DNA from: Minisyncoccia bacterium
GTDB taxonomy: Bacteria; Patescibacteriota; Minisyncoccia; Phycocordibacterales; Phycocordibacteraceae
Reading direction: 5' to 3'
Assembly: GCA_038212075.1 (NCBI GenBank)
Contig: JBBQUV010000001.1
Span: forward strand, 35,200 to 99,199
DNA length: 64,000 nt
A model generated the notes under the pieces. The model was not told the DNA's origin, ran no database searches, and saw nothing but the letters and a program-made list of their open reading frames with translations. The translations under genes and the position numbers were made by a program. Below, piece by piece: positions 431 through 48,787 of this stretch; within the stretch, counting starts at the first letter, position 1, and each line of letters starts with the position of its first letter.

Positions 431-1728
431 TGCACATGCGCCCATTCCAAATAATCCTTCTTGCCGTGTTTGCGGTGTCGGCGCTTGTTGGTCTGTACGT
501 GTTTTCCACCTTTAATGGGTTTGGCACCAGTGCCGCGCAGGTGGGAACGGTGGTTATCTGGGGCCCCCTTCCGCAGTCTGCGGTAGACAGTACGCTTAAC
601 ATATTGAAACAAGGGCACAAAGAGTATGCAAATGTTACGTACATAGAAAAACGAGCAGATACCTTTGATACCGAACTCGCAAATGCACTTGCTTCCGGCG
701 TCGGCCCCGACCTCATCATCATCAACCAAGAACAACTACTGACTGAAATTCCAAAAATCCAAACCATTCCGTACGCATCAATTCCACAGCGTACCTTTCT
801 TGATACCTTTCTTTCCCTTGATCAAATCTACTTAAACGCAACAGGTACTTACGGTATCCCTATTACCGTTGACCCTTTGGTGCTCTATTACAATCGCGCT
901 CTGCTCGCGTCTGCGGGAGTTCCAACACCGCCTGCCACATGGGAAGCGGTGGGGGGGCTTGTACCGCTTATTACTAAACAAAACGGAAGCCAAGTTATTT
1001 CCCGTAGTACGATTGCGCTTGGTAGCTACGGCAACATAACAAACGCACGAGCGATTCTTTCGCTTCTATTTCTTCAAGCGGGTTCAGTGGTAACTAAATC
1101 TACGCCACAAGGTATGCGATCTACCCTTGGCGAAACGGCAACGAGTGGCGGTGTCGCAACGCCGGCACAAGCGGCGGTAAATTTCTACACGCAGTTTGCA
1201 AACCCGGGGAAGACGGTCTATTCGTGGAATCCGTCGCTTTCGCCGTCGCGACAAGCGTTTACCACGGGCGACCTCGCACTCTATATTGGCTATGCATCGG
1301 AACTGTCGTCGCTGAAAGCGGCAAACCCAAACCTTTCGTTTGATATGGCGCCCATTCCAGAACCCGGCACAAGTGGCACGCGTAAAAACTATGGTCTTGG
1401 GTACGCATTCGCTATTCCAAAAGTTTCGAAAAACACGAGCGGAGCGTACCTTCTTGCAACGGCATTTGTTGACGATATTGCGCTAAAGTCACTTTCCGCT
1501 TCGCTTGGTATGGCGCCGGCAAAGCGAGCGCTCCTTACATTGGATCCCTCAAACCCCTACACCGCGGTGTACTACCCAGAGGCGCTGAATACCGCAGGCT
1601 GGCTTTCCCCAGCGCCATCTGCGGTAGACACCATCTTCTCTGCTATGATTAACAATATAACTTCTGGCCGCTATGATGCTTCACAAGCGCTCACTGCCGC
1701 GGATCAATCCCTCAATGCCGCATTTTAA
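427..1728 (+). CDS. extracellular solute-binding protein (ABC-transporter substrate-binding family 1-like), N-terminal TM anchor
   Basis: 433 aa with a signal/anchor helix; periplasmic binding-protein-like segments (VVIWGPLP, DLIIINQEQL, YYNRALL). ATGA overlap with the upstream gene. Confidence 0.45.
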   Translation: MMHMRPFQIILLAVFAVSALVGLYVFSTFNGFGTSAAQVGTVVIWGPLPQSAVDSTLNILKQGHKEYANVTYIEKRADTFDTELANALASGVGPDLIIINQEQLLTEIPKIQTIPYASIPQRTFLDTFLSLDQIYLNATGTYGIPITVDPLVLYYNRALLASAGVPTPPATWEAVGGLVPLITKQNGSQVISRSTIALGSYGNITNARAILSLLFLQAGSVVTKSTPQGMRSTLGETATSGGVATPAQAAVNFYTQFANPGKTVYSWNPSLSPSRQAFTTGDLALYIGYASELSSLKAANPNLSFDMAPIPEPGTSGTRKNYGLGYAFAIPKVSKNTSGAYLLATAFVDDIALKSLSASLGMAPAKRALLTLDPSNPYTAVYYPEALNTAGWLSPAPSAVDTIFSAMINNITSGRYDASQALTAADQSLNAAF

Positions 1729-1732
1729 TACC

Positions 1733-2125
1733 ATGCTGAAGCGAGCACGTCCCTATATATTTGTGGTACTGTTTTTCGCGTTTTTCGCACTCCCTGCAAT
1801 CAGTGTTTTTGCAGCTGATGGTAACGCGCTTCCCACAAGTCCGGATGGAACGAGCTGTGCAAATGGCACACTTTGTAATCCGCTCCAAAGTGCCACCATT
1901 CAAGATTTACTTGGAAAAGTGCTTGATGCAGTTATCGCTATTGGTACCGTGGTCGTTACTATCATGCTTGTTTACTGTGGGTTCCTCTTTGTTGTTGCGC
2001 AAGGTAATGAAGAAAAAGTGCGTGATGCTCGTTCCGCGCTTGTGTGGACGGTCATCGGCGCGCTCATACTTCTTGGCGCAAAGGTAATTTCAACCATCAT
2101 TAGCGCTACGGTGGCGACCCTATGA
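1733..2125 (+). CDS. TrbC/VirB2-like (T4SS pilin-like) small membrane protein, paralog 1
   Basis: Signal peptide MLKRARPYIFVVLFFAFFALPAISVFA, then two TM helices joined by a charged loop (AQGNEEKVRDARS). The internal ATG at 1733 is preferred over the ORF-track start at 1673, which overlaps the upstream gene. Confidence 0.6.
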   Translation: MLKRARPYIFVVLFFAFFALPAISVFAADGNALPTSPDGTSCANGTLCNPLQSATIQDLLGKVLDAVIAIGTVVVTIMLVYCGFLFVVAQGNEEKVRDARSALVWTVIGALILLGAKVISTIISATVATL

Positions 2126-2376
2126 TTCAAACCAGCGGACAGACCTTTTTGGGGCTTACCAACAACCTCGTTGCATTTGTAGACGGTTCGGTTATTCCGC
2201 TTCTCGGCGCGCTAGCGTTCGTGTTTTTTCTTATTGGTATGGTGCGCTTCTTTTTCTCACAGAGCGACGAAAATCGCGAGAAGGGAAGGCAGTTTGCACT
2301 TTGGGGCATGGTCGGACTTGTCGTTATTTTTACGGTATGGGGCGTCGTTACTCTATTTGTAGGTGCCCTTCAATAG
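2122..2376 (+). CDS. TrbC/VirB2-like small membrane protein, paralog 2 (no signal peptide)
   Basis: 84 aa, two TM helices with loop SQSDENREKGRQ; ATGA start/stop overlap with paralog 1. Confidence 0.55.
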   Translation: MIQTSGQTFLGLTNNLVAFVDGSVIPLLGALAFVFFLIGMVRFFFSQSDENREKGRQFALWGMVGLVVIFTVWGVVTLFVGALQ

Positions 2377-2427
2377 AACGGGGATAATGAATTGCGCTTT
2401 CACCGCTCCCTGCTACCCTTTGACTAT

Positions 2428-2844
2428 ATGAAAAAAATCGCACTAAAAAGTTCGCTCGCACTTGCGCTCGTCGCAGTGCCGTTTCTAGCGTTTGCTGATA
2501 CTACAAGTGGCACCGTGGGCGGGAAAATCACCACGTTCATAAACTTTTTGAATGCATCCCTTGTTCCTCTTATTTTTGCGGTAGCGTTTATTGTCTTTCT
2601 GTACTTTATATTTCAGTATTTTATTCTCGGTTCAGGCAACGAGGAAAAACTGAAAGAAGGGCGTATGTTTTTGCTCTACAGCATCATTGGTTTTGTCGTG
2701 ATGCTTTCGATATGGGGAATCGTGAATTTGTTTTACTACTCCCTTGATTTTGGTTCACAAAATCATCCAAATTTACCGACGTTTGGAACGGGAAGTGGCA
2801 ATTCCAGTAGTAGTTCAAATAGTCCCGTCAATAACAGCATCTAA
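2428..2844 (+). CDS. TrbC/VirB2-like small membrane protein, paralog 3
   Basis: Signal peptide MKKIALKSSLALALVAVPFLAFA, two TM helices and loop GSGNEEKLKEGR; Ser/Asn-rich C-terminal tail. Confidence 0.6.
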   Translation: MKKIALKSSLALALVAVPFLAFADTTSGTVGGKITTFINFLNASLVPLIFAVAFIVFLYFIFQYFILGSGNEEKLKEGRMFLLYSIIGFVVMLSIWGIVNLFYYSLDFGSQNHPNLPTFGTGSGNSSSSSNSPVNNSI

Positions 2845-2933
2845 TATAATCATCTTGTCCACAGAACCGTAATACCTGCATTGACTTCGTACCAAAGCCG
2901 ATTACCCTTATACCTATAGCCCTAAATACCATT

Positions 2934-3296
2934 ATGAAGAAACTTGCTTATCTCGGTGCTTCCTTTGCGCTTCCAATGCTCGCCTTTGCGCAGGCACAGA
3001 ACGTACAACAACTTGGTGATACTGTTATCCGAATTATCAACACGACGCTCGTACCGCTCGTGTTTGCTCTCGCCTTCATTGTTTTCCTTTGGGGCGTATT
3101 CCAGTTCTTCATCGCGGGTGCAAGCGACGAAGAGAAGCGCGAAGGCGGAAAGTCGTTGATGATCTACGGCTTCATCGGCTTTTTCGTGATGGTGTCCGTT
3201 TGGGGTATTGTGAACCTCCTTGTTGGAACCTTCAACCTTAACTCAAACGCTCCAGTGCAGTATCCGGGTGCTCCGTACACTCAGTCAGGGAATTAA
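2934..3296 (+). CDS. TrbC/VirB2-like small membrane protein, paralog 4
   Basis: Signal peptide MKKLAYLGASFALPMLAFAQA, two TM helices with loop AGASDEEKREGGKS. Confidence 0.65.
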   Translation: MKKLAYLGASFALPMLAFAQAQNVQQLGDTVIRIINTTLVPLVFALAFIVFLWGVFQFFIAGASDEEKREGGKSLMIYGFIGFFVMVSVWGIVNLLVGTFNLNSNAPVQYPGAPYTQSGN

Positions 3297-3313
3297 CGTT
3301 TTTTGAAAAGAAA

Positions 3314-3341
3314 ACCCCCGCCTTAGCGGGGATTTTCTTTT
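3314..3341 (+). terminator. rho-independent terminator
   Basis: ccccgc-ctta-gcgggg hairpin followed by attttctttt. Confidence 0.7.
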
Positions 3342-3389
3342 ACCCACGCACCTCTTTTATCCTGCGGGCTAGCGCCGTATACTAAGGAC

Positions 3390-3701
3390 ATGAAGAAACT
3401 TGCTTATCTCGGTGCGTCCTTTGCTCTTCCAATGCTCGCCTTTGCGCAGGCTAGTGGAGAAAACGCTTCGCAATTTTTTGACAACATAAAAACAAATATT
3501 GTTAACCCTATTATCACGCTTATCGCACTTGCCGCATTCGTAGTGTTTATATGGGGCGTTGTGGAATTTATTCGCAGTGCTGACGACGCGGAGAAGCGAG
3601 GAACCGGCCAACAGCATATGATATGGGGTATTGCCGGTCTCGTTATTATCTTTGGGGCAAACGCTATCATCGCTATTTTAAAAAATACATTTGGGTTGTA
3701 G
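3390..3701 (+). CDS. TrbC/VirB2-like small membrane protein, paralog 5
   Basis: The first 21 codons are nearly identical in nucleotide sequence to paralog 4; two TM helices, loop SADDAEKRGTGQQ. Confidence 0.65.
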   Translation: MKKLAYLGASFALPMLAFAQASGENASQFFDNIKTNIVNPIITLIALAAFVVFIWGVVEFIRSADDAEKRGTGQQHMIWGIAGLVIIFGANAIIAILKNTFGL

Positions 3702-3765: not shown

Positions 3766-4290
3766 TCAGTTGGGCGACGAGGTTTCATCCTCGCAGCTGA
3801 GCGTCTGCACTTGATTGGATGTGTTTTCGACAAATCCGACCAACCACAGCTGGATATTTTTGCCGCGTTCATTGACGCAGGTTCCACCCACCCTGTCGCA
3901 GATACGAAAGGTGTTGGGTGAAGGCGGCGGGGTGAAATTGAATGCACCCACCGGTCTGAACTTTGCAAAATGACCCGGCTGCAAGTACCGCATGACTTTG
4001 TCGGGGCCTTGGCATTTGCACGCCTTCTCCCCGTTTATGCCGCATACATGTGTCTGCCTATCGGCTTCCACAATCGCATTCACGGCGTCCTGCTGTGCCT
4101 GCTGTTGAGCCGCAACAATTGCTTGCCGCGACTCTTCCTGCAAGCCGAACCATTTGCTCCCAGCCGACACAATGACAACGAAGGCCACGAGGCCGATGAT
4201 TCCCCATTTGATGATCATATCGATGAATTGTTTTTGGGAAATTGCTGGTGTTGGTGGCGGTGTTGGCGCCGCCGGTGTGCTTGTTGACAT
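3766..4290 (-). CDS. hypothetical membrane-anchored protein with Cys-rich C-terminal domain
   Basis: 174 aa; Pro/Thr-rich N-terminus, one TM helix, six Cys in the C-terminal half. Its start overlaps the stop of the upstream SPFH gene, so they form an operon. Confidence 0.5.
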   Translation of the reverse strand: MSTSTPAAPTPPPTPAISQKQFIDMIIKWGIIGLVAFVVIVSAGSKWFGLQEESRQAIVAAQQQAQQDAVNAIVEADRQTHVCGINGEKACKCQGPDKVMRYLQPGHFAKFRPVGAFNFTPPPSPNTFRICDRVGGTCVNERGKNIQLWLVGFVENTSNQVQTLSCEDETSSPN

Positions 4291-4292
4291 GA

Positions 4293-5525
4293 CTATCTCC
4301 TCACGGGACGATTGTTGTTGACTGTTGGTTTTCTCGCTTCAAATGTTGGCTTGGGTGCCGGTGGCGGTTCGCCACCGATTTTCCGTGCCAAAGCATCTGC
4401 AACGGGCTTGAGTACTCCGTTAATGGCGGCGTTCGCGTCGAGGTCTTTGATACCGAAAACGGTTTCGTCGACTTTTCGAGTAGTTGCCAAGCCCATTTGC
4501 ATCTCGACGCTGGTAAGTGCGTCTTTGATGTTTATGCCGCTTGCAACCTGATCATCGACCATTTTTTTGATGGCCAGATTCTGCTCTATCTTCGCCGCCA
4601 TTTCGTCGGCTTGGTTTGCCTTAGCGAGAGCAGCCTCACGACGAGACTTCGGAATGTCAAAATATTCGACATCCGCGCCAGTGATTTGTACGCCTCTTGC
4701 GAGTGCGTACGAAAGAAACTGGCCGGCACGGTCGGCGATGATCTGAACACTGTGTTCTCCATCGACGAACTTGTCTTTGTCATCGTATAGACTGTTGTAG
4801 AGCTGGGCGTGCCTCTCAGCACTTTCCAGTGTTCCGTCATCAATTGGAAGATTAACCCAGTCTTTGACGTCGTCCTTGAGGTCGACAGAATCCTCCGCTC
4901 TTTTGAGTTGGTTCACAAAAAAGCGAATAACTGATTTGAACTCAAGGTCCAGAAGTGTGTCGATGGCCTTGACTTCTGTAAGCGACAGAACGGGATTTAC
5001 CGTCCTGCGGGTGAAGAACGCATTGGTCTCCACCTTCAAGTTATCGCCACCGGCGAGGTCGAAGAACGGTTCCGGATTGACCGGGTATTCCCGCATTTCA
5101 ACCGGAACACTTCCTTCAATTCCCGGTATACGCGGATGAATACCTGCGGTAAGCAGGGCGCCATCCGGTTTACCGAAGCGCGTTGAGACGCCTTCGCTAC
5201 CAAGCGGTACCTCGTTTGCCGCATTTGACGACTCACGCATGATCACGCGTATGACGTTGCCGCCCACGACGATCAAAACGATAAGTGCAATCGTGGCTGA
5301 GAAGTAGAAGGCAATCACGGCCGCAAAGGGAATCGCAACTGCGAACCCAGTAATGGCCGAGATGATACCGACACGCTTGAGACTTTCCCAAGGTGTAATG
5401 AGTGTGCCAGGCGCTGGTGCCGCCGCCCCTGGGGCGATACGGACAAACGCAAGCACCTCCGTGCGATATCGAAGTGCCAGAACTGCCATAAGCAGAACTG
5501 CCACGATGATTGCGATCGTTGCCAT
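4293..5525 (-). CDS. SPFH/band-7 (stomatin/flotillin-like) membrane protein
   Basis: 410 aa; N-terminal TM helices followed by an SPFH-like core and an Ala/Glu-rich coiled segment (REAALAKANQADEMAAKIEQ). Confidence 0.55.
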   Translation of the reverse strand: MATIAIIVAVLLMAVLALRYRTEVLAFVRIAPGAAAPAPGTLITPWESLKRVGIISAITGFAVAIPFAAVIAFYFSATIALIVLIVVGGNVIRVIMRESSNAANEVPLGSEGVSTRFGKPDGALLTAGIHPRIPGIEGSVPVEMREYPVNPEPFFDLAGGDNLKVETNAFFTRRTVNPVLSLTEVKAIDTLLDLEFKSVIRFFVNQLKRAEDSVDLKDDVKDWVNLPIDDGTLESAERHAQLYNSLYDDKDKFVDGEHSVQIIADRAGQFLSYALARGVQITGADVEYFDIPKSRREAALAKANQADEMAAKIEQNLAIKKMVDDQVASGINIKDALTSVEMQMGLATTRKVDETVFGIKDLDANAAINGVLKPVADALARKIGGEPPPAPKPTFEARKPTVNNNRPVRR

Positions 5526-13278: not shown

Positions 13279-13284
13279 CAAAAT

Positions 13285-13306
13285 CCGCCCGAAAGGGCGG
13301 TTTTGT
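13285..13306 (+). terminator. rho-independent terminator after rpmG
   Basis: ccgccc-gaaa-gggcgg followed by ttttgtg. Confidence 0.7.
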
Positions 13307-13322
13307 GTTAAAATCCCCGCAC

Positions 13323-13396
13323 GGGTCCATCGTATAATGGTAGTACAGCGGCCTCCAAATCCGCTAGCGTAGGTTCGATTCCTACTGGGCCCGCCA
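13323..13396 (+). tRNA. tRNA-Trp (anticodon CCA), with encoded 3' CCA
   Basis: Acceptor GGGTCCA/TGGGCCC, anticodon loop CTCCAAA, T-arm GTAGG-TTCGATT-CCTAC. The anticodon stem has a C-T mismatch at its base. Confidence 0.7.
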
Positions 13397-13402
13397 ATGA
13401 GA

Positions 13403-13427
13403 AACGCCGGAAGGCGTTTTCTCTTTT
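13403..13427 (+). terminator. rho-independent terminator after tRNA-Trp
   Basis: aacgcc-ggaa-ggcgtt followed by ttctctttt. Confidence 0.6.
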
Positions 13428-13505
13428 GGTGGGCCCAAGCAGGCGTGGGGCGCCTGCGTGTAGGAATCGAATGCCGGAGCGCGACGGCGCGAGGCGGGGT
13501 CGCGG
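13427..13505 (+). repeat. structured element with an inverted copy of the tRNA-Trp acceptor 3' end and T-arm, plus a hairpin
   Basis: TGGTGGGCCCA (reverse complement of the tRNA 3' end), hairpin caggcg-tgggg-cgcctg, GTAGGAATCGAA (reverse complement of the T-loop/stem), then GCCGGAGC and ACGGCGAGGCGGGG, motifs shared with the elements at 6040 and 29165. Confidence 0.5.
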
Positions 13506-13647
13506 AATTTTCTAGCAAGAAAATATCCGTGACCGCAAAGCGGAACCGTAGAATCTACAGGATTTGATAAGCGTACTCGCGGTCCTGCTGGGCTCGCCCT
13601 TGTGGGCAACCTACATCTCTTCAGATTTTGTGAGCTACAATATACAT

Positions 13648-14784
13648 ATGCGTGACTACAGGGCTCATATTTTCACACTCGCGTTTGCTGTCGTGCTCAT
13701 TATTCCATTCTTCGCCTTTGGCGCAGTGACCGATCCCGGTAGCTCCGGCTGGTCTATTGTCCCCAAGGAATGTAATTGCCCTCCGGCAAGTGATTCTGCG
13801 CAAGCGGCTGGATGGGGTTGTGTGCTCAAGGTTGTGGCAAATCTGATTCAGTTCGCAATCTATCTTAGTATTACTATTTCTGTACTAATGTTCGCCTATG
13901 CCGGCTTCCTTTGGGTGTTGAATCCCATAAATCCGGAAAATCGCGCGGCGGGAAGGAAGATATTAATGAATGCCGCCATCGGACTTCTCATTACACTTTC
14001 TGCGTGGCTTATCGTGAACACCCTTCTTATTGCACTTGGCGCTAATATTGACGGACAGGGCGGTATTGCTGGCACAACAAAACTACTTAGCGGCGGCTCT
14101 GACTGCACAAAGGGTGATCCGCTTGTAAATAATGGTGGAACGCTTGGAGGCGGTGGTGGAGACACAACAACGCCACCTGGCGGATGTCCATCTGGTCAAC
14201 AGTGTTCTGCAACCACCAAGACTTGTGAATACAAGACAACGACCACCATAACGTGTGGTGATAAAACGTGTGGAAAAAATGAAACCTGTGACGCAACAGC
14301 GAAAACGTGTACGCCTCCACAAGCCTGCACGCCACCCGCGGAAACTGGTAGTGGTGCCAATTGTCCTGCGGCGGCTCCTTCAGCAATGGTCGCGCTCCCA
14401 TCAGGAGATGTCGTTGGAGGAACTGGACTTGCTACGCCGGCAACTGTTCAAAACTACATTGCTATGCGCGCAGCAGCGCTACAAGCAGGATTTGACTTGA
14501 AAGTTTCTAGCGCTTATCGCTCAGATGCAACACAGGTTCAATTATGGAATCAATACTGTTCGTCTGGTACCTGCGGTGCCACAAAAGTGGCGAAGCCCTG
14601 CTCGCTCGGAGGAAATGGATCAAACCATAATTCTGGAGAAGCTCTTGATTTGACTGACGGATGTCATAATGGACAGAGCTGCAGTAGTCCAGCCTATAAC
14701 TGGTTGAAGACAAATGGAGGACGATGGAATTTTAGAAACGCTGTGCCCACTGACCCTGTGCACTGGTCACCGGACGGCCACTAG
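13648..14784 (+). CDS. fusion protein: TrbC/VirB2-like pilin domain, Cys/Thr/Gly-rich linker, and a peptidase M15 (VanY/D-Ala-D-Ala carboxypeptidase-like) domain
   Basis: Signal peptide; a two-TM pilin-like core with loop NPINPENRAAGRK; C-terminal M15 motifs SAYRSDATQVQLW, SNHNSGEALDL and DPVHWSPDG. The start was chosen at the signal-peptide Met (13648) rather than the ORF-track 13564. Confidence 0.65.
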   Translation: MRDYRAHIFTLAFAVVLIIPFFAFGAVTDPGSSGWSIVPKECNCPPASDSAQAAGWGCVLKVVANLIQFAIYLSITISVLMFAYAGFLWVLNPINPENRAAGRKILMNAAIGLLITLSAWLIVNTLLIALGANIDGQGGIAGTTKLLSGGSDCTKGDPLVNNGGTLGGGGGDTTTPPGGCPSGQQCSATTKTCEYKTTTTITCGDKTCGKNETCDATAKTCTPPQACTPPAETGSGANCPAAAPSAMVALPSGDVVGGTGLATPATVQNYIAMRAAALQAGFDLKVSSAYRSDATQVQLWNQYCSSGTCGATKVAKPCSLGGNGSNHNSGEALDLTDGCHNGQSCSSPAYNWLKTNGGRWNFRNAVPTDPVHWSPDGH

Positions 14785-15644
14785 CGCGCCGAATGAAGTT
14801 TGCGTACCCATGCTTTTTGGCGCCGAGCGTAGTGCCACAAGCGTGAAGACAGTGTAGGAAGAAGGGAGGCTTCCATACGTTCACCTCGCAGGTATTCACC
14901 AATTACTTTGTACTCAAGTCCCAGCTCGTTCAGGCGTGTGTCGCCCACGTATTCGCGAACTCGCCGCACTTCGTCAACAAGGCCTTGTGACAGTGCCTTT
15001 TCAAGACGTATCCCAATGCGCTTACGCAATTCTTCTGACGGTGGATTTATTACTATCCATTCAATTGCGTAATCTTCGCGCGCCTTTGGCGCGCGTTCCG
15101 GTACCACCCCGTGCACTGCCGCTATTTCAAGCGCGCGAATAAGTCGCCGCCGATTCCTGGGGTCAAGAACCTTTGCACGGTTAGGATCAACAGCAGAAAG
15201 TCGCGCAAAGAGATCCGCACCAGACACCTGTTCAAGCTCCGCGCGAAGTGCATCATTTTTGTCGGTGCCTTCAGGTAGTCCGTAGAGAAGTGCGTCAAAG
15301 TAAAAATGGCTTCCACCGACAAGAATGGGAAGGTTGCCACGTGCGGTGATTTCCGTAATTAATCGTTCTGCATCTTTCACAAAATCACCTGCACTGTATG
15401 GATTTTTTGGGTCACGAATATCAATAAGGTGGTGGGGCACACCTTGCATTTCATTTGGGGTGATTTTTTCAGTGCCAATATCAAGGGTTGTATAGATTTG
15501 CCGACTATCAACAGAAATAATCTCACCATTGCGGGCGAGTGCTTCAGAGACTGCTCGTGATGACTTTCCTGAGGCGGTTGGCCCCGCGATGCAGAGAATC
15601 TTCAATTGGTCGGCCACTGGCCAGAATGGTATCATAGGCACCAC
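14781..15644 (-). CDS. miaA: tRNA dimethylallyltransferase
   Basis: P-loop GPTASGKS, and DSRQIY..IGT, typical of MiaA. Confidence 0.85.
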   Translation of the reverse strand: MVPMIPFWPVADQLKILCIAGPTASGKSSRAVSEALARNGEIISVDSRQIYTTLDIGTEKITPNEMQGVPHHLIDIRDPKNPYSAGDFVKDAERLITEITARGNLPILVGGSHFYFDALLYGLPEGTDKNDALRAELEQVSGADLFARLSAVDPNRAKVLDPRNRRRLIRALEIAAVHGVVPERAPKAREDYAIEWIVINPPSEELRKRIGIRLEKALSQGLVDEVRRVREYVGDTRLNELGLEYKVIGEYLRGERMEASLLPTLSSRLWHYARRQKAWVRKLHSAR

Positions 15645-29693: not shown

Positions 29694-30620
29694 ATGAAAA
29701 ACTACTATCGCATAATGCTTGGACGAAAAAGTAGCCACGCTGATGAGGCACATAAGGGCAATTTCGTTGCGGCGGGCTTCATTAAAGACAAGGACCTCAC
29801 GCGTCACCTACCTGACAATTGGCGTGATTTTAATAAAGAATTCATCCCATTATTTCTTGATCAGAATCCTGAAAAGACAAAGATATCAGCGGGTCTCGCG
29901 TGCGGAATGCTCTGGACTGTCGCTAAGGGGGTTTTGGTGGGAGACATAGTGCTCTGCCCGGATGGTAAGGGTAGTTACTACGCAGGCGAGGTTACTGGCG
30001 AGTATGAATATCATAAGGGCGAAACGTTGCCGCATCGTCGGTCGGTTCGTTGGTTCACTCGTGCCATCTCACGTGACGAAATGAGCGAACCACTCAAGAA
30101 TTCAGCAGGTTCGATTGGTACGGTCAGCAATATAACGAAATATGCGGAGGAAATTGAGGCGCTAATTTCCGGCAGTCTTCCTGCCTCAATCATTTCGACT
30201 GATGCGACCATTGAAGACCCAAGCGAATTCGCGCTTGAAAAACATTTGGAGGACTTTCTTGTTCAAAACTGGCATGGCACAGAGTTAGGTAAGCGATTCG
30301 ATATTTATGAAGAGGATGGTGAAAAGGTTGGGCAACAATACCCAAGCGATACCGGTCCCATTGATATTCTCGCTATCAGTAAAGACAAAAAAGAGATAGC
30401 TGTCATCGAGCTCAAAAAAGGTCGTGCAAGTGATGTGGTCGTGGGACAAGTTCAACGATACATGGGGTATGTGAAAGAAGAATTAGCTGAAGACAATCAG
30501 TCCGTGCGAGGCATCATCATTGCGTTCGAGAATGATGTCAAAATAAATCGTGCCCTCTCTGTTGCTCCGAACATTGAGTTCTACACCTACAAAATCCACT
30601 TTAAGCTAGAGAAAAAATAA
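29694..30620 (+). CDS. two-domain protein: N-terminal unknown domain plus a C-terminal PD-(D/E)xK nuclease-fold domain (restriction-endonuclease-like)
   Basis: C-terminal GPIDILAISKDKKEIAVIELKKG.....GQVQRYMGYV, a D...E-L-K nuclease signature with a downstream Q..Y segment. It starts 2 nt after the xis-like gene. Confidence 0.55.
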   Translation: MKNYYRIMLGRKSSHADEAHKGNFVAAGFIKDKDLTRHLPDNWRDFNKEFIPLFLDQNPEKTKISAGLACGMLWTVAKGVLVGDIVLCPDGKGSYYAGEVTGEYEYHKGETLPHRRSVRWFTRAISRDEMSEPLKNSAGSIGTVSNITKYAEEIEALISGSLPASIISTDATIEDPSEFALEKHLEDFLVQNWHGTELGKRFDIYEEDGEKVGQQYPSDTGPIDILAISKDKKEIAVIELKKGRASDVVVGQVQRYMGYVKEELAEDNQSVRGIIIAFENDVKINRALSVAPNIEFYTYKIHFKLEKK

Positions 30621-32964: not shown

Positions 32965-33321
32965 ATGCGAAACATTGCGCCAGAAATAGTTCGCAAAAGA
33001 TTGTTGGTTGAGGCGAAGTTTTCAATTGCTGTTGATGCCGAAGTGGTGAAGAATTTTCTGCTTTCACTTGCCGCTCACCTAGAACTGCGAACATATGGTG
33101 ACCCTATTATTCACTCTCCAGGCGGGGAAGGGAAAGAGGAGAATCAAGGCTTTGACGCTTTCATTCCGCTCATTGATTCCGGTATTTCTTTGTACGTATG
33201 GACAAATGTGCAATTTCTTTCTTGCGTTCTTTATACTTGCAAGGACTTCTCTACGGAGAACGCTGTTACATTCACAACCGATTTCTACAAAACAACCGAT
33301 TTGGTATTTCAGGAATTCTAG
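32965..33321 (+). CDS. S-adenosylmethionine decarboxylase-like protein (SpeH/AdoMet_dc family)
   Basis: 118 aa; the pattern RLLVEA......LAAHLELRTYGDPIIHSPG....DSGISLYVWTNVQFLSCVLYTCKDF resembles small pyruvoyl-dependent AdoMetDC. Confidence 0.45.
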   Translation: MRNIAPEIVRKRLLVEAKFSIAVDAEVVKNFLLSLAAHLELRTYGDPIIHSPGGEGKEENQGFDAFIPLIDSGISLYVWTNVQFLSCVLYTCKDFSTENAVTFTTDFYKTTDLVFQEF

Positions 33322-33380
33322 TTCAAAGAAATAACGGTGACGCCCAATGTGGAATCGAGAATCCGTACTATACTCAACAC

Positions 33381-34211
33381 ATGTCTAATAAAACAGCTCG
33401 CAACATTGGGCAGGGAATTCTTGCAATCGTTGTGCTCGCCGCTATTGGTGCCGGACTTTACTACGCAACCATGCATCGAAGTGTTTCTTCCTGTACTAAT
33501 CTCGTACTCACTCATTCACTGACCATTGGTAGCACTGATACTGCCAATGATGAAGAAGTGTCGAAACTGCAAACATATCTGCGTGCTTGGGGTGAAAAGA
33601 TTATGGAACCAAAAGTAAAAGATCTCCCCGTTACCGGTTACTTTGGTTCGCAGACACGCACTGCCGTCGCCTTGTATCAGAAAATTCATAACATACCGAC
33701 CGATCCAGAGAGCGATGTCGCTACCACTACTGAGTGGGATAACCCAAATTACGGCATCGTTGGTCCACGTACTCGGAACTTGCTTAACAAAAGTTGTCTT
33801 GAAGGGGGATTCAGTGCTGGTATTGCATCACCTGCAACTGACCCCCTCATCACGAGTGTTGTGCTCGGTGCCTATCAGCAGTCGCTCTCTCAACCACTTA
33901 CGGTGGCTGTGACGGTACTGCCCATCACCTTCAAAGGATTCATAGAACTATATATTGTTCCTGCAAATCATAGTGGGCAGTGGCAGACGCTTGGGAGAGA
34001 GGTCGCCCAGACGGGTGACATTAGAGATGGATTCTCGGGCACACTAAAATTTAACATCACTGATTTTTCAGGTGGTGGTCTCCCTCAGCATGCTGGGGTA
34101 GTGGATGTTACTCCTGGTACGTACACTATCGTCGCACATGCCTATGACGGCACTTCAAATGGCACTCGTGTCATGGACACGATGAGTCTACCCGTTACCT
34201 TCACGCGGTAG
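33381..34211 (+). CDS. membrane-anchored protein with a peptidoglycan-binding-like domain and a C-terminal beta-rich domain
   Basis: TM helix, then LQTYLRAWG...LPVTGYFGSQTRTAVALYQ, which has PG_binding_1-like spacing. The internal Met after the upstream overlap was chosen as the start. Confidence 0.5.
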   Translation: MSNKTARNIGQGILAIVVLAAIGAGLYYATMHRSVSSCTNLVLTHSLTIGSTDTANDEEVSKLQTYLRAWGEKIMEPKVKDLPVTGYFGSQTRTAVALYQKIHNIPTDPESDVATTTEWDNPNYGIVGPRTRNLLNKSCLEGGFSAGIASPATDPLITSVVLGAYQQSLSQPLTVAVTVLPITFKGFIELYIVPANHSGQWQTLGREVAQTGDIRDGFSGTLKFNITDFSGGGLPQHAGVVDVTPGTYTIVAHAYDGTSNGTRVMDTMSLPVTFTR

Positions 34212-44206: not shown

Positions 44207-45202
44207 ATGGCTGATTCATACGAATCCCAGCTTATCGACCTGCGTGCGGGCAGGGACGTCTCCTTTTTCGACCTTTTGTCTATAGATCAGCTCACCAAGG
44301 CCGATATACGGCTTATTTTTGAACTTGCCCATGGCTTTAAGGAAGCGGGCACTGCAAAAATGACTCTCTGCAAAGGCCGTTCCCAAGTGAACGCCTTTTT
44401 TGAATCCTCAACACGTACGATGGCAAGTTTTGACCTCGCGGCGAAGAATTTGGGTATGGATACCACCAGCATTTCTTCCACCGGTTCCTCTACAAAAAAA
44501 GGCGAAAGCTTTATTGATACGGTTGAAACGGTTTCGGCATATGGACTTGCAACACTCGTGGTGCGCACCGCGCAGTCAGGCGCACCAGAATTTGCGGCGC
44601 GTCATATTGCCGCGGCGGTGATAAATGCTGGAGACGGATGGCACGAACACCCCACTCAAGGACTTTTGGATGCGATGACGATGCTTGAAGCATTCGGCAC
44701 TAAAGATTTGTCCGGAAAAATTATTACGATAGTAGGTGACATCACGCATTCGCGCGTGTTTGGTTCTCTGGTGCGTATTGTGAAAAAACTCGACGGGAAA
44801 GTGCGTATTGCCGCACCGGAAACATTTCTTCCAGATTTTGTAGAAAAGTTTGGTGTCGCGGTATACACCAACGTTGAAGACGCGCTGAAAGATGCCGATG
44901 TCGTATACGCGCTTCGTGTACAGGAAGAGCGAGGTGCAAAAGGGTACATTCCTACCATGCGTGAGTATTCAAAAACATTTGGTATTTCTGCCGCCCGCCT
45001 TGCACTTGCAAAGCCTACGGCAATTTTGATGCATCCTGGGCCCGTGATGCGCGACATTGATGTGCACTCCGCACTTGTGGCACGGCACCCCCAATCGCGT
45101 ATTTTGGAGCAAGTAAAAAATGGCTTTGCGGTGCGCAAAGCGATTTTGTGGTTGCTTGCTGAACGCTACGACCAAAAAAAGAAAACTTACACCACGATAT
45201 GA
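44207..45202 (+). CDS. pyrB: aspartate carbamoyltransferase catalytic subunit
   Basis: STRT, HPTQGLLD and HPGP motifs; adjacent to pyrC. Confidence 0.8.
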   Translation: MADSYESQLIDLRAGRDVSFFDLLSIDQLTKADIRLIFELAHGFKEAGTAKMTLCKGRSQVNAFFESSTRTMASFDLAAKNLGMDTTSISSTGSSTKKGESFIDTVETVSAYGLATLVVRTAQSGAPEFAARHIAAAVINAGDGWHEHPTQGLLDAMTMLEAFGTKDLSGKIITIVGDITHSRVFGSLVRIVKKLDGKVRIAAPETFLPDFVEKFGVAVYTNVEDALKDADVVYALRVQEERGAKGYIPTMREYSKTFGISAARLALAKPTAILMHPGPVMRDIDVHSALVARHPQSRILEQVKNGFAVRKAILWLLAERYDQKKKTYTTI

Positions 45203-46491
45203 GCTCACTACTTATTAAAGGAGGGCGCATTGTAGATCCGGCTTCACGCAAGGATACTATTGGTGACATCTTTGTGGTTGACGGTGTTATTCGCAAAATC
45301 GGAAAACTAAAAGAAAAAGCCGACGAAGTAATTAATGCGAAGGGGCTTATTGTTACACCCGGGCTTGTTGATATGCACGTGCATTTTCGTGAACCGGGGC
45401 GTGAAGACCAAGAAACCATTTTAACTGGCTCGCGTGCGGCACTTGCTGGTGGAGTGACTTCGGTTGCTACTATGCCGAACACAAATCCTATTGCTGACAA
45501 CCAAGCGGTCATTGAATTTATGGTGAATCGCGCCAAAGAGCTTCGACTCGTGAATGTGTTTCCGGTTGGTGCGACCACGAAAAAAACAGAAGGTGATTTA
45601 CTTTCGGAAATGTGGGAAATGAAGCGTTCGGGCGCCGTCGCCGTTACGGACGACGGTGTGGACGTGGAGAACGGAGGACTTCTTTTGAAAGCACTTGAAT
45701 ATGCAAAAACGCACGATTTGTTGGTGATGAGTCACTGCGAGACAGAAGAACTTGCTGATGGTGGAGTAATGCATGAAGGATGGGTTTCAACCGACATGGG
45801 ACTTCCTGGATTGCCCGAAGTTGCGGAAGATTTGGCGGCGCATAAAAGCATTTTGCTCGCGCGCCGAAGCGGCGCGCGCGTGCATCTTACGCACCTTTCA
45901 ACAAAAGGTGCCGTGATGGCAGTACGTGATGCAAAAAAATCAGGAATGAAAAACGTGACTGCAGATGTTTCTATACAGCACGCCGTGCTTACAGACGAGG
46001 AATGTCGCGGATACAATACGAATGCGAAGATGTATCCGCCGCTCCGCTCCGACGATCACGTGAAAGCGATTGTCGCAGGTATCAAAAATGGCACGGTAGA
46101 TGCGATTACCACTGACCACGCGCCGCACATTGAACCAGATAAAATTAAACCGTTTGTAGATGCGGCGCGTGGTACGGTGGGGCTTGAAACGAGCTTTGCG
46201 GCACTCTACACGTATTTGGTAAAACCAAAACACATTACGTTGTCCGAAGGTATTGCACTTATGACCTACAAACCTGCCCGTATTCTTGGGCAGAAAAAAG
46301 GAACACTTGCGGTGGGCGCAGACGCGGATATCGCACTATTTGATATTAAGAAAGAATGGAAGGTAGACCCCACGAAGTTTTATTCCAAAGGCAAAAACTC
46401 TGTGTTTGCAGGGAAGAAGCTTATCGGAAAAGCAGTGCACACCATCGTCGCTGGAGAAATAAAAATGAAAGACGGCAAGGTGCTATCCTAA
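45199..46491 (+). CDS. pyrC: dihydroorotase
   Basis: GLVDMHVHFREPG metal-binding motif and an amidohydrolase fold. Confidence 0.85.
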   Translation: MSSLLIKGGRIVDPASRKDTIGDIFVVDGVIRKIGKLKEKADEVINAKGLIVTPGLVDMHVHFREPGREDQETILTGSRAALAGGVTSVATMPNTNPIADNQAVIEFMVNRAKELRLVNVFPVGATTKKTEGDLLSEMWEMKRSGAVAVTDDGVDVENGGLLLKALEYAKTHDLLVMSHCETEELADGGVMHEGWVSTDMGLPGLPEVAEDLAAHKSILLARRSGARVHLTHLSTKGAVMAVRDAKKSGMKNVTADVSIQHAVLTDEECRGYNTNAKMYPPLRSDDHVKAIVAGIKNGTVDAITTDHAPHIEPDKIKPFVDAARGTVGLETSFAALYTYLVKPKHITLSEGIALMTYKPARILGQKKGTLAVGADADIALFDIKKEWKVDPTKFYSKGKNSVFAGKKLIGKAVHTIVAGEIKMKDGKVLS

Positions 46492-46495
46492 CCAT

Positions 46496-47572
46496 ATGCT
46501 TGGAGCGCCTTTCTTTGACCCGCTCAAAACCTATTACGAGAATTGGGAGAAAGGACCATTTAATGGATTTGCCGATGGCGTAGTGCTTGATGAAGGTCCT
46601 GCGCTTTTTGATTTTCTTGGTGGACGCATTTCGTATCCGCTTGGTATTCCTGCGGGACCGCTTTTGAACGGAAAGTTTGTAAAAGCGGCGATGGATAAGG
46701 GTTGGACGGTGCCGGTGCATAAAACGGTGCGTACGCGTACGCGAAAATGCAATGAATGGCCGAACGTTCTTGGGGTGAAAGATTTGCCCGGCGACCTTAC
46801 TCTTGAACGTGCGAAAGAACCTCTTGTGGTTACGAATGAATACAGCGAACCACTTTCCATAACGAATTCTTTTGGAAATCCTTCATACGAACCGGAAGTG
46901 TGGATGAAAGATTTAGAAGAGTGTATTTCGTATGCTCGCCCGGGAGAGCTCGTGATGTGCTCGCTTGAAGGAACAAAATGGGACGAAAACTGGACGACGG
47001 AAGAATATGTAAACGATTGGGCAAGTGGAATGCAGATGTTGAAGTCCGCGGGAGTGAAAGTGGTAGAAGCAAACTTGAGCTGTCCGAACGAAGGCGCGGC
47101 AAGTTTGCTTTGCTTTGACGTACCAAAGGTAAAAATGATTGCAATGGCAATCAAAGAGAAAATAGGTGATACACCACTTGTTATAAAAATCGCGTACTTC
47201 GGCGAAGACGAACTTCGAGAGCTTGTGAAAGAAGTGGGGAACATTGTGGACGGTTTTTCTGCAATCAATACCATTCCTGCTCCCGTAGTGAACCCAGATG
47301 GCACGCAAGCGCTTATTGGCGAGCACCGCGTTAAAAGTGGCATTTGTGGACACGCGGTGAAGTGGGCGGGCGTAGACATGGTTCGTCGTCTTGCAGTACT
47401 CCGCAAGGAATTTCATATGGGCTACGGCATTATCGGTTCTGGCGGCGTCACCGTGCCTGAAGATTTTCGTGAGTACCGCGATGCGGGTGCGGATGTAGTG
47501 ATGAGTGCAACGGGTGCCATGTGGAATCCGTATCTCGCTAAAGAAATTAAAGCGATGTATCCAAATGGCTAA
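46496..47572 (+). CDS. pyrD: dihydroorotate dehydrogenase
   Basis: NLSCPN and IIGSGGV motifs. Confidence 0.8.
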   Translation: MLGAPFFDPLKTYYENWEKGPFNGFADGVVLDEGPALFDFLGGRISYPLGIPAGPLLNGKFVKAAMDKGWTVPVHKTVRTRTRKCNEWPNVLGVKDLPGDLTLERAKEPLVVTNEYSEPLSITNSFGNPSYEPEVWMKDLEECISYARPGELVMCSLEGTKWDENWTTEEYVNDWASGMQMLKSAGVKVVEANLSCPNEGAASLLCFDVPKVKMIAMAIKEKIGDTPLVIKIAYFGEDELRELVKEVGNIVDGFSAINTIPAPVVNPDGTQALIGEHRVKSGICGHAVKWAGVDMVRRLAVLRKEFHMGYGIIGSGGVTVPEDFREYRDAGADVVMSATGAMWNPYLAKEIKAMYPNG

Positions 47573-48206
47573 TATGGAAACGGCACGCGAAGTCGCACGA
47601 GCACTCATTGCTATCGGCGCTATTGGATTTAGTGTTGATAAGCCAGTTACATTTGCTTCTGGCATCGTTGCTCCTGTATATGTTGATAATCGTAAATTTC
47701 CTTTTCATCCTGCAGAATGGACAAGGATAATAAATGGATTTGCGGATTTACTAAAAAAAGAAAATCTTTCTGTAGAGGTGATTGCGGGGGTAGAAGCGGC
47801 GGGTATTCCGCATAGTGCGGCGCTTGGATTCCATACCAATACGCCTTCCGTATTTATACGAAAAAAACCAAAAGGCTACGGGATGAATAAATTAGTCGAG
47901 GGTGGAAACGTTTCGGGAAAAAAAGTTGTTCTCGTTGAAGACCTTGTTACTACCGGCGGAAGTAGCTTGAATGCAGTCAGGGCACTTCAAGATGAGGGAG
48001 CAAAAGTAACGGACGTAATCGTCATCGTGACTTACGGCTTTCCTGAATCAGTAGAGGCATTCAAAAATGCAAATGTAACGCTACACTCTCTGACAAGTTT
48101 TCCTATCATTCTTGAAGAAGCACAAAAGCTTGGAAAGCTTTCTTCCGAAGACGCACAGATCATTGAAGCGTGGGCCCAGAACCCCCATCATTGGCGAGAA
48201 GCATGA
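47565..48206 (+). CDS. pyrE: orotate phosphoribosyltransferase
   Basis: PRPP-binding loop VVLVEDLVTTGGS. The start at MANMET overlaps the pyrD stop, and the ORF-track upstream extension is rejected. Confidence 0.8.
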   Translation: MANMETAREVARALIAIGAIGFSVDKPVTFASGIVAPVYVDNRKFPFHPAEWTRIINGFADLLKKENLSVEVIAGVEAAGIPHSAALGFHTNTPSVFIRKKPKGYGMNKLVEGGNVSGKKVVLVEDLVTTGGSSLNAVRALQDEGAKVTDVIVIVTYGFPESVEAFKNANVTLHSLTSFPIILEEAQKLGKLSSEDAQIIEAWAQNPHHWREA

Positions 48207-48787
48207 CCACCTATATTCTTCACGGAGGATATGTGAGGCACAGTAATGAATCTAACGATGCTTACTATCGTAGAGTAATTGAGCTTGTGCCCGAGGGAGG
48301 AACTATACTTTTTGTATACTTTGCCGCTCGTAACGACGAAGGAAATTATGAGGAACTCTATACTGCACAGAAGATGCAGATGGAGCAATTCGTAAATGGT
48401 AAACGCCTGACGTACGTATGTGCCACTCCAGAACACTTTCTTGAAGAAATTAAAAATGCAGACGCAGTACTTATGCGTGGAGGAAGTACCAATACATTAT
48501 TGGAAACGTTACGAACATATCCAGATTTAAAAAACGCGTTTGAAGATAAGGTGGTAACCGGTTCATCTGCTGGCGCATACGCTATCGCCGCATATAACTA
48601 TGACAAGTCACAGCGCACTATGCGCACTGGTCTAGGGCTACTTCAAGTTCGCGCGGTATGTCACTACCAGAGTGAAAACGAAGAAAATTGCGTGGATGAC
48701 GATGGTGTGACAATTATGAACGCTGTCCATGGGGAGCTACCGCTTATTGTTCTAAAGGATCACGAGTGGAAAGAATTCACCGTATGA
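48203..48787 (+). CDS. peptidase S51 family / class I glutamine amidotransferase-like protein
   Basis: GGSTNTLL.....GSSAGA catalytic Ser region; the ATGA junctions on both sides suggest it is co-translated with the pyr genes. Confidence 0.55.
   Translation: MTTYILHGGYVRHSNESNDAYYRRVIELVPEGGTILFVYFAARNDEGNYEELYTAQKMQMEQFVNGKRLTYVCATPEHFLEEIKNADAVLMRGGSTNTLLETLRTYPDLKNAFEDKVVTGSSAGAYAIAAYNYDKSQRTMRTGLGLLQVRAVCHYQSENEENCVDDDGVTIMNAVHGELPLIVLKDHEWKEFTV

Follow-up and report, generated by a model that had tools for sequence, protein, structure and literature searches.

We analysed a 64,000-nucleotide stretch (the window) of contig JBBQUV010000001.1 from an ultra-small Minisyncoccia bacterium of the Patescibacteriota, in which a single open reading frame (ORF) joins a VirB2-like pilin module to an M15 family peptidase. 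The fusion ORF (13648-14784, +) runs from an ATG start to a TAG stop in the ORF list and encodes 378 aa, and its product is identical to NCBI protein P0001. A sequence-only reading of this DNA had placed a signal peptide, a pilin-like core, a Cys/Thr/Gly-rich linker and an M15 domain in this one ORF, and all of these elements were found (Table 1). An upstream in-frame TTG at 13564 is possible as a start and would add 28 residues, but homologues of the fusion begin at the ATG position with the same basic-then-hydrophobic leader, so that the longer start is unsupported. The hexamer TACAAT lies 6 nt 5' of the ATG (13636-13641), and the hexamer-to-start spacing is equal in two related loci, L007 (TACAAT) and L009 (TAGAAT). 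A consensus promoter scan did not report the TACAAT at this position and found no -35 match; the fusion mRNA may be leaderless. Because a terminator-like hairpin follows the tRNA-Trp gene, the fusion gene looks like its own transcription unit. An Rfam search of the region 5' of the fusion gene returned the tRNA only and no riboswitch. At the other end, the fusion gene and miaA share the palindrome CTAG, within which their two TAG stops overlap, and the coordinates of the two genes overlap by the same 4 bp in loci L001 and L005.

Table 1. Positions of the fusion gene, its parts and associated features in the window
Feature	Position	Strand	Basis
Free-standing VirB2-like pilin array, four ORFs and a weak fifth at 2104-2373	1673..3701	+	PF18895, TrbC, module hidden Markov model
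tRNA-Trp, directly 5' of the fusion gene; edge of the stretch that varies among relatives	13323..13396	+	ARAGORN; Rfam 60 bits; locus comparison
Terminator-like hairpin, 3' of tRNA-Trp	13401..13420	+	Sequence scan
Complete fusion gene	13648..14784	+	ORF list; both Pfam domains above gathering scores
Sec-type signal peptide (predicted), residues 1-26: basic n-region, hydrophobic core, AFG↓A	13648..13725	+	Read from sequence
Mature N-terminal segment with C42 and C44, predicted extracytoplasmic	13726..13818	+	Conservation; net charge -2 fits outside
VirB2/TrbC-type pilin hairpin, residues 58-132: transmembrane helix 1, basic loop, transmembrane helix 2	13819..14043	+	Pfam PF18895, model, module hidden Markov model
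Flexible Thr/Gly/Pro/Cys-rich stalk, residues 133-238	14044..14361	+	Composition; C153 in 82/82 near base
Cys-rich stalk insert, residues 180-227, 8 Cys	14185..14328	+	Sequence comparison of relatives
M15/LAS-fold zinc peptidase head, residues 239-378	14362..14781	+	Pfam VanY, AlphaFold2, Foldseek, profile search
R291...Q296 of SxYRSxxxQ, M15 substrate-binding motif	14518..14535	+	Both residues invariant
H327-x6-D334, first two zinc ligands (SNHNSGEALD)	14626..14649	+	Aligned to Ply500 H80/D87 and VanY/LdcB SxHxxGxAxD
D369-P-V-H372, predicted catalytic acid/base and third zinc ligand	14752..14763	+	Ungapped to Ply500 D130-Y-P-H133
miaA, convergent with the fusion gene; junction kept in relatives	14781..15644	-	ORF list; locus comparison

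The structure of the fusion was predicted with AlphaFold2 from an alignment of 82 sequences of relatives, with a mean predicted local distance difference test score (pLDDT) of 81.6. The N-terminus has the features of a Sec signal peptide, as judged from its leader, which begins MRDYRAH and continues with a hydrophobic stretch up to AFG↓A; the model shows a helix over residues 3-18, and P20 and A25 are more than 90% conserved among the 82 relatives. C42 and C44 in the segment that follows are each Cys in 69 of the 82. Two long hydrophobic helices (residues 56-91 and 96-130, pLDDT 87-95) are linked by the basic loop NPINPENRAAGRK, and Pfam T4SS_pilin (PF18895) matches residues 65-126, marginally, at 28.8 bits versus a gathering score of 26.6. 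The inter-helix loop NPINPENRAAGRKILMN has a net charge of +2, the segment before helix 1 one of -2 and the segment after helix 2 one of -1. By the positive-inside rule, the loop is predicted to be cytoplasmic (or to face a pilus lumen) and both hairpin ends to lie outside, which would make the stalk and head extracytoplasmic. Cysteine conservation would suit an oxidising environment outside the cell, with C153, C239 and C318 invariant and C339 and C345 each kept in 77-78 of the 82 relatives. In solved conjugative pili the inter-helix loop is directed toward the lumen and both termini lie together (PMC12037004). Foldseek was uninformative for the helical hairpin, the best pilus match being that of A. 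pernix (8dfu, E=2.9).

A module hidden Markov model (HMM), built from residues 30-150 of the fusion family in the 82 relatives, matched all four pilins of the free-standing array with E values from 4.7e-15 to 6e-8. Nothing else in the window was matched besides a fifth small pilin-like ORF inside the array (2104-2373, +; E=2e-4), which is shorter than the 90-aa cut-off of the ORF list. The four array pilins match PF18895 at 1e-8 to 4.5e-12, and the product of 3390-3701 also exceeds the TrbC gathering score. An array occupies the same relative position in loci L003 and L007. Because the module HMM matches the array, the module of the fusion is truly homologous to the free pilins of this genome rather than a common signal anchor, which agrees with the sequence-only reading that the two-transmembrane core is of the same type as the array pilins. 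The fusion is not itself a small, pilin-only protein, since its stalk and enzyme add about 250 aa C-terminally. Two genes lie 3' of the array on the opposite strand (3766-5525, -), one for a 174-aa transmembrane protein without a Pfam match and one for a 410-aa SPFH/Band 7 protein; in L007 two unannotated genes are found at the same relative position.

The 106-residue stalk contains 22 Thr, 21 Gly, 9 Cys and 8 Pro. Residues 140-176 are disordered in the model (pLDDT 35-57), and short beta elements are predicted between residues 184 and 222 (pLDDT 70-80). The Cys-rich linker that had been noted from the sequence is present in the window protein, but the insert occurs in only 1-3 of the 82 M15-headed relatives and is common to P0079, P0061 and P0091, which carry different heads. 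Judged from this comparison, the Cys-rich stalk is a lineage-specific insert.

The C-terminal domain is compact in the model (residues 240-378, pLDDT >90) and is matched by Pfam VanY (PF02557) over residues 265-363 at 44.2 bits (gathering score, 25; E=2e-11). It carries the M15 motifs S288-A-Y-R291-S...Q296, S325-N-H327-N-S-G-E-A-L-D334 and D369-P-V-H372-W, in which R291, Q296, H327, D334, D369 and H372 are invariant in the 82 relatives. A search of PDB sequences with the family profile matched B. subtilis LdcB/YodJ (6.7e-9), VanY (1.7e-8) and Ply500 (6.7e-8), as well as LdcB of B. anthracis and S. pneumoniae. Foldseek matched the model to VanXYc (2e-5), VanY, LdcB and Ply500 (1e-3) with probability 1.00, followed by weaker matches to VanX and Hedgehog; this series of matches to the predicted structure is that of the LAS fold. 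The local HMM alignments ended just short of the last motif of the head, and the Ply500 sequence from X85009 was aligned instead. The catalytic domain of Ply500 has two His only, H80 in GGQSNHNYGVAVD87 and H133 in DYPH. The Ply500 segment EGFKWGGDWKSFKDYPHFE and the window protein segment NGGRWNFRNAVPTDPVHWS align without gaps, so that the W residues coincide and D130 and H133 are paired with D369 and H372, and it is from this alignment of the last motif that the zinc site of the head is taken to be complete. The M15 signature claimed in the sequence-only reading was thus borne out, as was the alignment of the H/D/H zinc ligands on which that reading was made to depend.

The subfamily is less clear. 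The label "VanY-like D,D/L,D" given to the domain in the sequence-only reading does not clearly apply, as SNHNxGxAxD and DxxH fit Ply500 at least equally well. VanY and LdcB show SEHQ and an insert before ExxH, whereas the head shows DxxH and SNHN, as does Ply500. The Glu of the M15B ExxH motif is E175 in VanY, according to the title of PDB 5hnm, and the fusion family has an invariant DxxH instead. Scores with the curated NCBIfam models fell short of their cutoffs (LdcB, 18.9 versus 275 bits; DdpX, 22.9 versus 176). The head thus combines SNHNxGxAxD with a D-x-x-H-aromatic motif at the Ply500 spacing. However, its overall similarity does not point clearly toward Ply500, as the profile match is 6.7e-8 versus 6.7e-9 for LdcB and Foldseek ranks M15B enzymes first. 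On its motifs and predicted fold, the head belongs to the M15/LAS peptidases, and we do not file it under the LdcB/VanY carboxypeptidases because of the Asp of DxxH, the SNHN motif and the missed NCBIfam models. For the head, endopeptidase activity like that of Ply500 is no less likely.

The fusion was matched by 110 database clusters. The architecture with both domains is far beyond chance, because about 80 of these clusters carry both Pfam domains. Some relatives are named "D-alanyl-D-alanine carboxypeptidase family protein" by NCBI. In a scan of one genome per species, the fusion was present in 23 species labelled Paceibacterota, Parcubacteria or Kaiserbacteria. The gene order in nearly all loci is IF2-NifS-ClpB-L33-[variable stretch]-fusion-miaA(convergent)-Prx-ParB-RelA/SpoT-TopA, and the order around the fusion in the window is identical. 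Because of this conserved order, the fusion is read as a vertically inherited chromosomal gene outside any mobile element, van cluster or prophage. MurG is encoded in the window, an indication of peptidoglycan synthesis by the organism. One fusion-bearing relative, Parcubacteria C7867-004 (L018), is listed among the VirB4-positive Paceibacteria in Table S1 of PMC12102498.

The stretch from L33/tRNA-Trp to the fusion (13279-13647 in the window) varies among relatives, as seen in L001, L005, L009 and L034. Depending on the relative, it contains Memo/PGA_cap, NUDIX or DUF1295 genes, a pilin-SLT gene with a gene for a small transmembrane protein, or nothing. In L009 the tRNA-Trp is kept only as a 3' remnant, beside an inserted diversity-generating retroelement (RVT_1 and bAvd) and VWA and AAA_5 genes. 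The tRNA-Trp site looks like an integration hotspot.

A survey of the architecture across relatives showed that the fusion is not unique, the module being combined with many heads besides M15. The N-terminal module without the M15 head is present in 20 of the first 110 matches, and about 90 protein clusters carry the fusion. A word-indexed search with the N-terminal 150 aa found 3 short pilins only and was uninformative; it was replaced by an exhaustive search with the module alone, which found 4026 representative proteins at E<=1e-3 and 279 at E<=1e-10. Nearly all of the best 150 matches are 250-470 aa long, with the module at residues 30-140. When the 144 closest module relatives were scanned with Pfam, 138 matched PF18895 (best 1e-31) and 8 matched TrbC. 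The further recurrent families were SLT_3 (9 proteins), SLT (5), VanY (5) and CHAP (5), and the Pfam-recognisable heads on the module are all peptidoglycan hydrolases. Clustering on the last 125 residues of module-bearing proteins gave 13 head clusters, among them an SLT_3-like cluster (39 representatives), HYGG...HxH (26), TEAYPPT (20), HGNGYKxD (16), a Tae3/CHAP-like cluster (11) and M15 (5). The 5 M15 representatives stand for 94 clusters at 90% identity.

Different heads also occupy the same chromosomal site. At the L33-miaA site of L007, which is represented by two independent assemblies, the same module and Cys-rich stalk are found up to PQACTPP and are followed by a HYGG head, and L009 carries a Tae3-like head at this site. 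The 12 modules nearest to that of the window (53-71% identity) all bear non-M15 heads, whereas the nearest M15 heads (64-76%) are carried by modules just 33-47% identical. The histories of module and head therefore differ, given these mosaic identities and the exchange of heads at an orthologous site. The family shows the layout of a polymorphic system, with a constant N-terminal module and variable C-terminal enzymatic heads. The HYGG...DF...HxH head (P0079 type) gave only an insignificant match to a Hedgehog N-domain among PDB sequences (E=0.7), and its AlphaFold2 model was poor (pLDDT 58), with nothing meaningful found by Foldseek. The TEAYPPT head had no PDB match. A resemblance of the HYGG, TEAYPPT and HGNGYKxD heads to further LAS peptidases was a motif impression only and is not claimed; hhalign gave probabilities below 3% against the M15 head. 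Six other module-bearing proteins encoded outside the window (P0230, P0132, P0154, P0183, P0134 and P0226; 560-1775 aa) consist of 5-17 tandem pilin modules and amount to fused pilin arrays.

In at least 19 loci, the M15 gene is preceded by a gene for a pilin-SLT_3-like protein and then one for a small transmembrane-anchored protein. The latter has about 165-195 aa, no Pfam match and the C-terminus ...NLGxSFCPGAxxLP (L001-L032; e.g., L005, 9453-10004), and it is always encoded directly 3' of the pilin-SLT gene and never without it. The small protein is a candidate inhibitor or immunity protein or, alternatively, an assembly factor. Most relatives thus possess a glycan cutter (pilin-SLT) and a peptide cutter (pilin-M15). 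The pilin-SLT partner and the small transmembrane protein were both absent from the window in tblastn and HMM searches.

The Tae3-like head is a clear homologue of Tae3, an amidase effector of type VI secretion systems (T6SS) (PDB 4hz9, E=5.9e-20; the entry is identified as Tae3 in PMC11796386 and PMC10318531). Convergent genes lie 3' of the pilin-Tae3-like genes in two independent loci (L009, 11047-11535, -; L036, 1043-1393, -). Their products, which are 32% identical, both have the motifs FYKWY and QD and match DUF3828 best among Pfam families, below threshold (E=0.023 and 3.7e-4). A joint profile of the two neighbours matched PDB 3kzt at 7e-4; the 162-aa L009 product alone had no PDB match and no homologues in a word-indexed search. 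The immunity protein Tai3, which inhibits Tae3 through its QDx motif, belongs to DUF3828 (PMC13082787). The sequences of the Tae3-like heads and their DUF3828-like neighbours are suggestive of effector-immunity pairs. Immunity candidates accompany other heads only, namely the DUF3828-like products beside Tae3-like heads and the small transmembrane protein beside pilin-SLT. In L034, a gene between L33 and the pilin-Tae3-like gene (712-1377, +) encodes a product of 221 aa that combines a C-terminal transmembrane segment with a thioester (TED) adhesin domain (22.6 bits versus a threshold of 22) and that may be a covalent adhesin beside a wall-hydrolase head.

Our preferred reading, to which we give a rough probability of 0.4, is that the fusion is a pilin-borne, exported, wall-breaching peptidase directed at a foreign wall, that of a host or a competitor, at cell contact. 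The fusion would be exported with its hairpin held in the membrane or in a pilus, and the stalk and head would project outside, where the head would hydrolyse the stem peptides of peptidoglycan. The pilin module would serve as a delivery or display device, either as a membrane root or as a pilus subunit. M15 would be one interchangeable head in a family of pilin-borne wall hydrolases that would open peptidoglycan where the VirB2-type pilus or type IV secretion system (T4SS) of these epibiotic bacteria operates. This reading is favoured because of the exchangeable heads of different bond specificity, the Tae3 homology, the immunity-like neighbours, the long stalks and the epibiotic lifestyle. 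Several results weigh against it. The majority of heads on the module match no Pfam family among the 144 proteins scanned, and the DUF3828 matches of the L009 and L036 neighbours are below threshold (21.2 and 15.3 bits versus a gathering score of 26). No extra gene, and thus no immunity-like neighbour, lies between tRNA-Trp and miaA in the window. VirB4, VirB6 and VirD4 were not found among the scanned ORFs of the window, which included every ORF of at least 500 aa, and no T4SS machinery was found within 10 kb on either side of the fusion in relatives; a pilus made of these pilins in Paceibacteria is itself putative. No part of the fusion is better conserved than the M15 head (mean, 61% identity), and a conserved head in a stable housekeeping neighbourhood would fit a self-directed function equally. 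In a more specific form that we regard as rather unlikely, the fusion would join the free VirB2-like pilins in polymerisation as a minor pilin, so that a T4SS-type pilus bears exchangeable hydrolase "warheads" (M15, SLT, Tae3-like and others) on its outer surface or tip and breaches a host or competitor wall on contact; membrane-anchored immunity-like proteins, namely those of the DUF3828/Tai3 type and the small SLT partner, would then silence the unpolymerised membrane pool.

In the main alternative, the target would be the producer's own wall. The fusion would then be a VirB1 analogue, a hairpin-held peptidase that, with the pilin-SLT partner, cuts the producer's peptidoglycan for assembly of a pilus, a T4SS or another envelope-spanning machine, and we hold this to be a real, if doubtful, possibility. 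The pair of pilin-SLT and pilin-M15 mirrors the combined glycan and peptide cutting of PrgK, TraG and CwlT, and the family could fill the VirB1 gap of VirB2-bearing Patescibacteria. The gene is conserved and vertically inherited at one fixed site, the pilin array lies within the same conserved neighbourhood, and no immunity gene stands beside the M15 gene. However, heads of different bond specificity swap at one locus and the module and head trees disagree, which is unusual for an enzyme facing a constant own wall. The pairing of Tae3-like heads with Tai3-family-like neighbours and the position of the gene outside a T4SS operon also speak against an own-wall opener. The same core-gene neighbourhood would fit, and the lack of an immunity partner would be expected of, a non-lytic housekeeping carboxypeptidase of the LdcB/VanY type, which trims terminal D-Ala or tetrapeptides in wall maturation and for which the hairpin is a mere two-helix anchor. 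The Pfam VanY match, the top PDB sequence match to LdcB/YodJ, the top folds (VanXYc, VanY and LdcB) and the NCBI name of a DD-carboxypeptidase family protein all point this way. Such a role is nevertheless improbable, given the NCBIfam LdcB and DdpX scores far below cutoffs, a DxxH motif with Ply500 spacing in place of the M15B ExxH, and an anchor that is a conserved VirB2-type module recurring with many hydrolase heads. Nor would a trimming role this specific be compatible with a Tae3-like amidase or an unrelated head at the orthologous site of relatives.

The module and stalk might also serve for export only, as a carrier or pro-protein from which cleavage would release the head as a secreted, soluble hydrolase. 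C-terminal processing is documented in the VirB2 family, with removal of 27 residues in TrbC and 5 in TrhA (PMC12037004), and the long, low-complexity stalk is predicted to be disordered. Yet neither a TraF-like protease nor a conserved cleavage motif was identified, and the invariant C153 and the disulfide-rich character of the stalk point to a structured tether; we consider a carrier role quite improbable. Release of the head is a possible delivery mode and would be compatible with either an own-wall or a foreign-wall target. Least probable by far is an origin as a VanY gene acquired for vancomycin resistance or as the remnant of a prophage endolysin, as could be read from the Pfam name, from weak PHROG matches (a tape-measure M15 domain and an endolysin) and from weak tblastn matches to Microbacterium phage endolysins. 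The phage matches are marginal (E, 1e-5 to 6e-4), no van or phage genes lie nearby, and the region is a syntenic core region in 23 species; a van-gene or prophage origin is effectively refuted by the genomic context.

Outside the fusion locus, the window contains an apparent de novo pyrimidine operon (44207-49581, +), with genes for aspartate carbamoyltransferase, dihydroorotase, dihydroorotate dehydrogenase, a phosphoribosyltransferase and orotidine monophosphate (OMP) decarboxylase. Patescibacteria are generally described as lacking nucleotide synthesis, which makes this operon notable. Possibly an acquired island, the segment 29694-32287 has a low GC content (0.37 versus about 0.49 elsewhere) and contains, beside ORFs that match no Pfam family, the gene for a NucS/PDDEXK-type nuclease (29694-30620). 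Envelope- or secretion-related products are a PG_binding_1 protein (33198-34211, +), a Peptidase_C39_2-like protein (53642-54838, +) and a protein with a CAP (cysteine-rich secretory) domain (60442-61374, -).

Patescibacteria make up a large share of bacterial diversity. Cultivated members live attached to other bacteria, and the T4SS and VirB2-like arrays are essential there, in a role described as enigmatic (PMC12857230, PMC12102498). VirB2-like pilin arrays of Patescibacteria have been reported (Quinonero-Coronel et al., 2025, PMC12102498; Wang et al., 2023, as cited in PMC12102498). The 2025 survey of Patescibacteria T4SSs identified pilins with PF18895 and PF04956, discussed arrays and VirB1 and noted that most VirB2-bearing genomes lack a recognisable VirB1; its main text and supplements do not mention VanY/M15 or enzyme fusions (PMC12102498). 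VirB2-like pilins appear only as small proteins in a 2025 T4SS review (PMC12857230). Searches of the searchable literature for VirB2 with M15, Patescibacteria with VanY, or Patescibacteria with pilin and peptidoglycan hydrolase returned nothing relevant. The sequence-only reading had placed the combination outside the described T4SS components, and this agrees with our searches: the pilin-M15 architecture is visible in databases and, as far as the searchable literature goes, undescribed.

The fusion and its relatives are candidate wall-cutting partners joined physically to the pilin fold; they form a large, modular family whose heads are exchangeable and mostly unassigned in fold. If the heads act on host walls, they would represent a new delivery route for wall-degrading effectors, a handle on how epibionts breach their hosts and a source of new peptidoglycan hydrolases. 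If the producer's wall is their substrate, they would account for the building of a VirB2-type pilus across a monoderm's own wall. If they are pilus-borne warheads, they would constitute a new route for pilin-borne polymorphic antibacterial effectors and would give the Patescibacteria T4SS and pilin arrays a molecular role.

Among known systems, VirB2/TrbC pilins and the Patescibacteria arrays share with the fusion a signal peptide, a hairpin with a basic loop and PF18895/PF04956, and an array is present in the same genome. However, known pilins have about 70-150 aa and no enzymatic domain, whereas the fusion adds a C-terminal stalk and head and its assembly into a pilus is putative. The head resembles Ply500, the L-alanoyl-D-glutamate endopeptidase of Listeria phage A500 (MEROPS M15C, PDB 2vo9), in its LAS fold, in the motifs GYRSxxEQ, GGxSNHNxGxAxD and D-x-P/V-H-aromatic and in an identical spacing after the Trp; in contrast, the phage endolysin Ply500 is soluble and has a wall-binding domain at its C-terminus. 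With the M15B enzymes LdcB/YodJ and VanY/VanXY (PDB 4ox3, 4mph, 5hnm and 4mut) it shares Pfam VanY, the Arg/Gln motif and the H-x6-D ligands, but it has the Asp of DxxH, no long insert before the last motif and no van operon. The T6SS Tae3-Tai3 pair and polymorphic toxins are similar to the family in their constant N-terminal delivery module and variable C-terminal wall-degrading heads, and sister loci encode a Tae3 homologue and DUF3828/Tai3-like neighbours. The module of the fusion is nevertheless a T4SS-type pilin and not PAAR, VgrG, Rhs or LXG, and the M15 gene has no immunity candidate. A VirB1-like protein would have an SLT/GH23 and/or CHAP/NlpC domain in a T4SS locus, which is not what the M15 fusion shows, while sister proteins on the same module do have SLT, SLT_3 or CHAP-type heads. 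The T4SS hydrolases of monoderms, PrgK (pCF10), TraG (pIP501) and CwlT (ICEBs1), are membrane anchored and combine glycan and peptide cleavage (PMC12102498). They differ from the fusion in their domains (SLT, CHAP, NlpC/P60 or LytM, compared with M15/LAS) and in their plain transmembrane helix or lipobox in place of a VirB2-type hairpin; the fusion gene, in turn, lies outside a T4SS operon, and the heads of its family are exchanged between lineages. What they have in common with the fusion is the plan of a membrane-tethered extracytoplasmic wall hydrolase tied to VirB-type machinery, and the fusion family appears to split the two activities over pilin-SLT and pilin-M15 proteins.

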